Positions 3,117 through 4,254 of a stretch of 6,065 bases of DNA are shown here, one piece after another. Origin of the DNA: a virus. Taxonomy: Duplodnaviria > Heunggongvirae > Uroviricota > Caudoviricetes. Positions within the stretch are counted from its first letter, which is position 1. Every line of letters starts with the position of its first letter. The notes beneath the pieces were generated by a model. That model made no database searches, was not told where the DNA came from, and saw only the letters and a program-made list of their open reading frames with translations. Position numbers and translations under genes: made by a program. Location: IMG/VR virus record IMGVR_UViG_2529292873_000014. One strand, 5' to 3'.

Positions 3117-3143
3117 GGCACAAAAAACCCGCTCAGAGGCGGG
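3117..3143 (-). terminator. Intrinsic terminator closing the CPBP transcription unit
   Basis: Minus strand reads CCCGC-CUCUGA-GCGGG (plus 3128-3143) followed by U6 (plus A-tract 3122-3127) then GUG. An alternative hairpin GCGGG/CCCGC overlaps. It stands out as a GC-rich hairpin in an AT-rich region. Confidence 0.6.
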
Positions 3144-3284
3144 GTCAAGCTATGCGGCGAAATAACCACTCTTAACAGCATACCTGATTTTTTACGTACG
3201 TAAATGCTTTGCCGTGCATATTTTTCATGCAAATGTCACGTCCTGCTATTTTTCAGTCTTATAAATTTAAAACCATAGAAAAAA

Positions 3285-4103
3285 TCAATTATGTTTTAAA
3301 AATGGATAGGTAAAGAATAACAAGTGACACAGATTCAAACCAAAATGGAAAAGGGTGGCAACCCACAAACGCCCACTCCACATCCATGACAATCCATACA
3401 CAACACCAGATAACGTGGCAAATAATACAAGTAAAGCACCACCTGAATAGTGATAAAAACCAAACAACAAAGCCGCCACAATTAATGCAACCAATGGAGA
3501 CGTTACTTCTGATAGCCGTGATTGAATATACCCTCTAAATAATGATTCCTCTGCCAGAGACACAAAAAACAAATTAGCCAATATAAACTCTGGCAACCAC
3601 TCAGGAAAATGAATCTCTGGCTTTAATCCACCAAAAAAAACAGCCAAAAACAGGATAAGAGGAACAGAGAGCGACAGAGCCCCCCACTTCCACAAAGACA
3701 CTTCTGATTTTACTTCTTTTTTAAACAAAGAAGATGTACACAGGACTAACAAAAATGGCACCAGCGCTTTATCAAAATTAAAATACATTGTATAGGGAGT
3801 ACTTTGAGGGCCAACAGTAACAGAATTTAGCACTACAGGATTGTGAAACCCTGGCCATAGATGGAAAAATAATGCTATGGCTGATAAAACTATGCCAACT
3901 TCATATATAGATTTAGCCCAGGCGTTATATTTCCAGTTGAACTTCAAAATAATAAAAAAAACGATTGTAGCAACAAAAAATAACACCGACCAATCAATAA
4001 TATCATTAAGCACAGCCAGGACAACAGACACCGTCAACAATGAAAAAGCCACTACCTTATGCCAACTGAGAGTTGACAGTGACAGTACTAACACAATCCA
4101 CAT
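3285..4103 (-). CDS. CPBP-family (CAAX protease / bacteriocin-processing, Abi PF02517-type) intramembrane metalloprotease
   Basis: Start ATG at 4103-4101 with AAGGAG (plus 4109-4114) and a 5-nt spacer; the GTG at 4109 used by the ORF track lies inside the SD. The polytopic hydrophobic protein carries the three CPBP motifs in canonical order and spacing: EESLFR (motif 1, EExxxR, residues 187-192 in ORF-track numbering), FGFYH (motif 2, FxxxH, 216-220), HFGLN (motif 3, HxxxN, 255-259). AT-rich, about 37% GC in a sampled stretch. Confidence 0.8.
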   Translation of the reverse strand: MWIVLVLSLSTLSWHKVVAFSLLTVSVVLAVLNDIIDWSVLFFVATIVFFIILKFNWKYNAWAKSIYEVGIVLSAIALFFHLWPGFHNPVVLNSVTVGPQSTPYTMYFNFDKALVPFLLVLCTSSLFKKEVKSEVSLWKWGALSLSVPLILFLAVFFGGLKPEIHFPEWLPEFILANLFFVSLAEESLFRGYIQSRLSEVTSPLVALIVAALLFGFYHYSGGALLVLFATLSGVVYGLSWMWSGRLWVATLFHFGLNLCHLLFFTYPFLKHN

Positions 4104-4134
4104 AAGCACTCCTTTTATTTAATGATGAAGATTG

Positions 4135-4163
4135 ATTATCAATATTTTCAATTCACCAGGCAA
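4135..4163 (-). promoter_or_regulatory. Candidate sigma70 promoter in the Q-to-CPBP intergenic region (possible pR'-like late promoter)
   Basis: Minus strand: -35 TTGCCT (plus 4158-4163), 17-nt spacer, -10 GATAAT (plus 4135-4140). A second candidate -10 TATAAT lies at plus 4214-4219 without a good -35. The position immediately after the Q stop is where lambdoid phages place pR' and qut. Hexamer matching only. Confidence 0.3.
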
Positions 4164-4254
4164 CATTTTATCTACCTTCCACAATACATGACCATCAAAA
4201 AATAAACATGTTAATTATAAACACAGAAAACATAACCCTCATCACTATATATCC

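Follow-up and report, generated by a model that had tools for sequence, protein, structure and literature searches.

Gene content and identity of the locus

We analysed a stretch of Caudoviricetes DNA of 6,065 nucleotides (nt), IMG/VR virus record IMGVR_UViG_2529292873_000014, which carries a gene for a CPBP-family intramembrane protease directly after the gene of the antiterminator Q (this whole stretch is called the window below, and all positions are counted from its first letter). The genes lie on the minus strand in the order DUF968 gene, rusA, Q, CPBP, a small TrmB-like open reading frame (ORF), an AraC-like regulator, three transfer RNA (tRNA) genes and the start of a SASA esterase gene. 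In our reading, the CPBP segment is probably a cargo gene ('moron') that was inserted between the Q gene and the late promoter pR'. The two genes at the centre of this reading are the following.

4626-4255, minus strand: gene of the antiterminator Q (ECs1084 in Sakai Sp4; Pfam PF06530, E = 8.7e-52)
4103-3285, minus strand: gene of a CPBP/Rce1-like intramembrane glutamic endopeptidase (ECs1085; WP_000265265.1), 272 residues, ATG at 4103

The segment 3100-4260 is 100% identical to Escherichia coli O157:H7 chromosomes and is present in 572 of 5,426 complete E. coli genomes, in 547 of them with an identity of at least 99%. The Sakai counterpart of the locus is prophage Sp4, which adjoins yccA, and the prophage is best explained as lambdoid, of the Sp4/CP-933M type of enterohaemorrhagic E. 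coli (EHEC). In the Sakai annotation, ECs1084 is Q, ECs1085 a 'phage CAAX amino terminal protease family protein', ECs1086 the small ORF and ECs1087 an AraC-family regulator, while RefSeq names the ECs1085 product a 'CPBP family intramembrane glutamic endopeptidase'. Public databases already list the gene as a protease of this kind; the new points are the position of pR', the backbone origin of the terminator, the placement of the gene beside two unrelated Q families and the purifying selection on it. The Q gene is labelled 'antiterminator Q family protein' by PGAP, and its product is about 81-85% identical to Q of phage ev207 and of Shiga toxin (Stx) phages. Its assignment to the Q21/933W family follows bioRxiv 10.1101/651190.

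The protease and its catalytic motifs

The start of the CPBP gene adopted here is the one given by PGAP (the same ATG, 819 nt). A mechanical ORF list begins two codons earlier, at a GTG at 4109, but this start was ruled out: there is an overlap with the Shine-Dalgarno sequence, and every homologue begins with MW. An earlier note on this DNA, made from the sequence alone, had counted from the GTG, and its catalytic residues E187, E188, H220 and H255 correspond to E185, E186, H218 and H253 in our numbering.

The protein matches the Rce1-like family PF02517 over residues 169-258 (E = 1.4e-19; score 70.6 bits, cut-off 22.4). Among 49 aligned homologues, E185, E186 and R190 of the EExxxR motif are invariant, as are F214 and H218 of the FxxxH motif and H253 of the HxxxN/D motif, with N257 of the latter conserved in at least 90% of the sequences. 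All three motifs are thus kept, as the earlier note had read them. The protein model is confident and predicts eight helices in an Rce1-type helical membrane fold, with SpdC and Rce1 as the best fold matches. By sequence, the protein is an inner-membrane glutamic endopeptidase of the CPBP/Rce1 type with its catalytic residues in place, and because of its family membership and the intact motifs it is plausibly an active enzyme, in agreement with what had been proposed before. A catalytically silent scaffold that regulates a partner envelope enzyme, as SpdC does in Staphylococcus aureus, would share this fold; however, the invariance or near invariance of EE..R, H and H..N among the 49 homologues is unexpected for a pseudo-enzyme, and we find this explanation hard to credit.

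Outside the Pfam domain, residues 84-117 (window about 3854-3753) contain a motif, PGFHN ... Y-x-NFDKALVPF, that is specific to an enterobacterial subfamily of about 272 residues. Its invariant positions are G85, N88, Y107, N109, D111, K112, A113, P116 and F117, and the loop that carries it, with its short beta strands, may serve in substrate binding. No profile matched residues 1-165, the N-terminal half, and a sequence-profile search of the PDB with the CPBP protein returned none either. The gene was not filed under the myxosortase-type CPBPs, where NCBIfam similarity is sub-threshold only, and its PHROGs entry reads 'unknown function'. A literature survey for ECs1085, including CPBP and CAAX proteins in the contexts of O157, prophages or Shiga toxin, found nothing on the gene.

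A late promoter module downstream of the protease gene

The position of the late promoter was deduced from a junction comparison of the window with six relatives that possess a Q gene of the same family (seven sequences aligned), with the GenBank annotation of 933W as reference. Homology to the relatives breaks at the stop codon of Q (4254) and resumes at window position 3204. The resumed backbone module of about 85 nt (3204-3122, minus strand) aligns with the features annotated in the 933W record, namely a putative pR' (20666-20693, TTTACG-16-TATCAT), the qut site (20707-20714) and a possible rho-independent terminator (20726-20748). In three relatives that lack the CPBP gene (933W, P13374 and a Stx2c prophage) the module directly follows Q, and in the other three it follows other cargo. 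We recognised the following features in and behind it.

3204-3177, minus strand: predicted pR' homologue, TTTACG-16-TATGCT, aligned to the 'pR' putative late promoter' of 933W
3176-3163, minus strand: initially transcribed block GTTAAGAGTGGTTA, just upstream of the qut position annotated in 933W
3144-3122, minus strand: first hairpin of the pR' leader, CCCGC..GCGGG followed by T6 (terminator scan and RNA fold), beginning 141 nt past the CPBP stop
2997-2698, minus strand: small TrmB-like winged-helix ORF (ECs1086), the first gene after pR' (PHROG 331, E = 5e-40)
2812-2785, minus strand: second predicted intrinsic terminator, a 7-base-pair (bp) stem with a T-run (terminator scan and fold), just after the small ORF

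Because 3204-3122 matches pR', qut and terminator of 933W in the alignment, and because the same module follows Q in the CPBP-less relatives, the pR' homologue of the window is placed downstream of the CPBP stop codon. The -35 and -10 elements, the invariant block and the hairpin of this module, which accompanies a PF06530-type Q, all match the late modules of the Q21/933W type. Twelve nucleotides of the initially transcribed block, TAAGAGTGGTTA, do not vary among the seven aligned phages, and at the second position of GTTAAGAGTGGTTA 933W and P13374 carry an A; the block is a probable pause and Q-loading region. A perfect palindrome, TTTACGTACGTAAA (3204-3191, minus strand), overlaps the -35 of the pR' homologue and may be an element bound by Q or some other operator. 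At this place 933W carries TTTACGATCGTAAA, and the Stx2c-type module differs there as well.

The hairpin at 3144-3122 is homologous to the possible terminator of 933W and, on this alignment, is an element of the phage backbone and not of the cassette. The earlier note had described a clean terminator about 140 nt past the stop codon as the end of a self-contained unit of promoter, gene and terminator. The hairpin and its T-run do lie at that distance, but since they sit in the conserved pR' module the cassette is not self-contained, and the hairpin is probably leaky for pR' transcripts (see below).

According to the same earlier proposal, the gap between Q and the protease gene contains the pR' equivalent, so that the CPBP gene would lie between pR' and a tR'-like terminator and Q would read through into the downstream genes. 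The gap does contain promoter-like sites, and a hairpin with a T-run does lie 141 nt past the stop, as such an arrangement would require. However, the pR', qut and terminator features fall wholly within 3204-3122, on the far side of the CPBP stop; the gap is not homologous to a pR' region of any kind; and the relatives without the CPBP gene possess the same module directly after Q. We therefore consider this arrangement very improbable. As the CPBP gene is located upstream of the pR' homologue, it is predicted to be outside Q control in this prophage.

The pR' promoters of the Sakai Stx1 and Stx2a phages are constitutively active in lysogens (Sy et al. 2020, PMC7547250), and the tR'-terminated pR' transcript of the Sakai Stx phages has been observed experimentally as an RNA of 258 nt (PMC7547250). 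By our own arithmetic, 258 nt from the predicted start on the 933W record reaches the second annotated terminator (20929-20957) and not the first hairpin. Because the 258-nt RNA extends to this second terminator, at least some pR' transcripts seem to pass the first hairpin, and the homologous hairpin of the window is probably leaky for them too. The terminator at 2812-2785, which lies about 380 nt beyond the predicted start of the pR' transcript, is likely the tR' equivalent by its position. We expect that the Sp4-type module should give a constitutive short leader RNA in lysogens, like StxS (PMC7547250). An Rfam scan identified no family at the pR' module or the cassette, and HnrS was rejected as the RNA of the window's pR', being encoded in Sp9, Sp10 and Sp12 but not in Sp4.

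The ORF of the ECs1086 type has one extra T (a +1 frameshift) compared with intact homologues of 65 residues and hence its frame continues past the terminator behind it; PGAP marks the copy of O157 as frameshifted, too.

With pR' after ECs1085, transcripts of this gene would run into a constitutively active late-promoter region before they reach psrA (the AraC-like regulator gene) and the tRNA genes, or stx in a related prophage. The corrected order matters for models of late-gene and virulence-gene control in EHEC prophages, where pR' and its leader would begin after ECs1085.

The protease segment as probable cargo between Q and pR'

The insert extends from 4254 to 3205 (1,050 bp) and has its own 151-nt leader, while the terminator scan found no terminator between the CPBP stop (3285) and 3205. 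Its guanine-cytosine (GC) content is low (about 0.35-0.40 in the cassette and 0.32-0.41 across 3201-4400, compared with 0.50-0.58 in the flanks). The earlier placement of the cassette directly after Q is borne out, and its composition and the homology break at the Q stop mark it as a discrete insert. Two features that are usual for morons are thus present, i.e. an insertion between elements that are adjacent in relatives (Q and pR' in the Stx2c prophage, 933W and P13374) and a distinct base composition; a terminator of its own is missing.

Other genes occupy the same slot in related phages. These include a gene for a 336-residue unknown protein on the opposite strand (locus L002, 3589-4599), one for an ORF6N-domain protein (locus L003, 3679-4239) and one for an OmpD/NmpC-type porin in phage ev207 (locus L006, 3076-4218). 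Such varied cargo at the Q-pR' junction is typical of moron hot spots.

Leader and candidate promoter of the protease gene

The region between Q and the protease gene contains the following features.

4254-4104, minus strand: AT-rich leader of 151 nt (GC 0.32-0.37)
4163-4135, minus strand: best candidate CPBP promoter, TTGCCT-17-GATAAT (promoter scan), with a predicted start about 24 nt before the ATG
4114-4109, minus strand: Shine-Dalgarno sequence AAGGAG, read from the sequence, 5 nt ahead of the ATG at 4103

The strong Shine-Dalgarno sequence and the candidate promoters that the earlier note had seen in this gap were both found again. The promoter scan gave three sigma-70-like matches on the correct strand, a number to be read with the chance matches expected in AT-rich DNA. 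Promoter-like sites also occur at equivalent positions of related leaders: the cassette of locus L015, which is 84% identical, has TTGCCA-17-GATAAT, and the more diverged cassettes of loci L017 and L019 have TTGCAT-17/18-TATAAA and TTGACA-19-TATAAT. Their recurrence at equivalent places in four diverged leaders is suggestive of a promoter that belongs to the gene. The leader shows no nucleotide homology to phages without the cassette and no terminator-like hairpin among the minus-strand matches of the terminator scan. A terminator or attenuator inside it was also considered and rejected, as no hairpin with a T-run is present and the z-score of the leader fold is only -2.2.

Conservation and selection among prophage copies

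The order Q-CPBP-pR' recurs in prophage copies whose proteins are 84%, 62% and 59% identical to that of the window, each 120-150 nt after a PF06530 Q gene, and is found in 40 of 44 IMG/VR loci. In these copies the pR' module begins 65-95 nt past the CPBP stop, and across diverged lineages the gap between Q and CPBP measures 120-157 nt. Four diverged prophage copies are all intact with 272 codons, and their ratios of nonsynonymous to synonymous substitution rates (dN/dS) of 0.12-0.30 show that the prophage copies are under purifying selection. Prophage copies always adjoin Q, and the Q genes have co-diverged with the CPBP copies. In one of these loci, an E. coli prophage (L015, 5479-8833), Q is followed by CPBP (84% identical), the pR' module and then the Shiga-toxin A and B genes; the A subunit of the toxin has 315 residues and resembles that of Stx1 in length only.

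Another clade, at 55% identity, is found behind an unrelated Q of the lambda family (PF03589). In prophages of this kind (loci L022, 4742-5046, and L067, 2709-3000) a promoter-like site and a strong terminator with an 11-bp stem are located immediately behind Q and ahead of CPBP, which is the reverse of the order in the window. The association of the CPBP gene is thus with the early/late boundary and not with one regulatory wiring.

The tight linkage to Q (120-157 nt) and the co-divergence of the two genes, together with the lack of a terminator between them, are also what one would expect if the protease were a delayed-early lytic function, i.e. the last gene of the early-right operon, near-silent in the lysogen, transcribed together with Q upon induction and acting for instance in the processing of a membrane protein of phage or host before lysis. 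AT-rich DNA is moreover a typical target of H-NS silencing, which would suit such a near-silent gene. However, a probable microarray signal of CPBP in uninduced cells lies far above that of the early genes of the same prophage, the gene stays intact even though many of its carriers are defective prophages, and orthologues in chromosomal, non-phage contexts (see below) indicate that the substrate is probably bacterial. We thus judge a lytic function to be unlikely.

Chromosomal relatives and their neighbourhoods

Full-length CPBP relatives at about 50% identity are widespread across Enterobacterales. In Hafnia and Providencia the gene is located between modF and either the gal operon or a gene of the histidine-phosphatase family (GpmA-like), in Dickeya the homologue lies among housekeeping genes, and in a genome labelled P. 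aeruginosa its neighbours are gpmI and an envC-like gene; one more chromosomal context was covered as well. In a neighbour-joining tree all prophage copies fall into a single clade and the chromosomal ones, whose housekeeping surroundings are fixed, group by genus. Many Enterobacterales hence carry members of this CPBP family on their chromosomes. No ORF is common to the contexts examined, and a conserved partner of the CPBP gene was therefore rejected.

These neighbourhoods also bear on the suggestion, made in the earlier note, that the gene is a candidate for defence or exclusion. A protease that alters or removes a membrane component needed by phages, colicins or microcins could act in defence, superinfection exclusion or bacteriocin immunity, and Gram-positive CPBP ('Abi') proteins reportedly give bacteriocin self-immunity. 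The porin genes (NmpC/OmpD-type) that occupy the Q-pR' slot in relatives and the purifying selection on the gene in prophages would fit such a role. Positive support for it did not emerge, however. None of the defence-protein models of PADLOC-DB v2 matched at E <= 0.01 (0 families), and no bacteriocin, toxin, defence or bacteriocin-export gene is annotated in the neighbourhood of the prophage copy or in the eight others examined, the chromosomal contexts being of a housekeeping kind. The literature survey, too, gave nothing that would link the gene to defence. On balance, a defence or immunity factor seems an improbable explanation.

Proposed role of the protease

We propose that the gene is most likely an envelope-acting gene of lysogenic conversion, as its position and family suggest. 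In the lysogen, the CPBP gene would be transcribed from a sigma-70 promoter within its own 151-nt leader. After induction, transcription of the early-right operon would extend beyond Q into it as well, as expected because no terminator separates Q from CPBP. Transcription would continue across pR' and stop at a backbone terminator, either the hairpin at 3144-3122 or the one that follows at 2812-2785. The protein would then probably cleave or bind a host envelope protein and thereby alter a property of the cell surface or membrane of the lysogen.

Several points weigh against this proposal. AT-rich DNA is expected to yield promoter-like matches readily by chance, the start and the 3' end of the CPBP transcript are sequence predictions, and the role in lysogenic conversion is argued from where the gene lies and which family it belongs to. 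Where Q is of the lambda family, the CPBP gene follows an apparent pR'-tR' module, hence it could be Q-dependent there, and regulation is not uniform across lineages. In addition, searches of 50,697 phage records with the cassette (megablast and tblastn) gave no close homologue and weak Listeria matches only; no isolated phage among these records carries the gene, and its carriers may largely be defective prophages.

A more specific form of the proposal is that the protein is a conserved lysogenic-conversion factor of EHEC-type lambdoid prophages, one Shiga-toxin prophage included. By proteolytic remodelling of a host protein in the inner membrane or the periplasm, it would keep competing phages, or bacteriocins directed at the membrane, from entering. 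This version is doubtful, and we put it forward as a speculation. If it is true, it would represent a protease-based mechanism of exclusion or immunity not yet described in Gram-negative bacteria, and selection on the time of its expression, at the switch from early to late genes, would explain why the gene has been kept next to Q genes of two unrelated families.

In either case, about a tenth of the complete E. coli genomes, mostly O157:H7, possess an intact and selected single-gene membrane protease. Should it turn out to act in exclusion or immunity, the host protection encoded by prophages would gain a protease-based mechanism; otherwise it would be one more uncharacterised moron.

Neighbouring genes

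The genes on either side of the cassette and its late module include the following.

4987-4616, minus strand: rusA
1948-2661, minus strand: psrA (ECs1087), gene of the AraC-like regulator, a downstream neighbour outside the cassette
1920-1671, minus strand: tRNA genes Ile-CAU, Arg and Arg

The name psrA was given to ecs1087 in a 2026 paper (PMC13502914). Its product is YdeO/GadX-like and a regulator of the GAD island and of type III secretion, and the window's copy differs from that of Sakai at about 25 positions. A strong Rfam match to the small RNA STnc100 (RF02076, 138 bits, E = 2e-31) was found at 1404-1594 on the minus strand, in the interval that separates the tRNA cluster from the SASA esterase (nanS-p-like) gene. 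At the other end of the window, the DUF968 gene (5000-6046, minus strand) is split into three overlapping ORFs. Compared with Sp4 of O157, this region has single-base deletions at about 5458, 5624 and 5657 as well as many substitutions, whereas 3100-5250 is identical to Sp4. The breakage represents either a decaying gene or sequencing errors within a recombinant variant.

Comparison with known systems

The protein shares with the CPBP/Rce1 proteins of solved structure, Rce1 of M. maripaludis (PDB 4CAD) and SpdC/LyrA of S. aureus (PDB 6U0O), the C-terminal catalytic core with its motifs on transmembrane helices. It is, however, only 14-17% identical to them and has an N-terminal half of its own that carries the subfamily motif.

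The Abi/CPBP bacteriocin-immunity proteins of lactic acid bacteria, such as SkkI and PlnI, belong to the same Pfam family, and their conserved motifs are required. These genes lie in bacteriocin operons, whereas no bacteriocin gene is annotated near any homologue of the window gene that we examined.

The late module resembles the pR'-qut-tR' module of the 933W and Sakai Stx phages, the source of StxS, with which it shares the -35, the -10, the invariant block and the first hairpin. Downstream of the hairpin the window has the winged-helix ORF and psrA instead of the StxS sequence and stx.

The closest parallels to the cassette as a whole are the porin morons, nmpC after quuD in DLP12 and the OmpD-type porin gene after Q in ev207. 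They occupy the same slot between a Q of the Q21/933W type and pR', have a foreign composition and consist of a single gene for an envelope protein. The cargo of the window differs from them in having no terminator of its own and in its orientation, since it lies on the same strand as Q and the porin gene on the opposite one, and it brings into this slot an inner-membrane protease instead of a porin.

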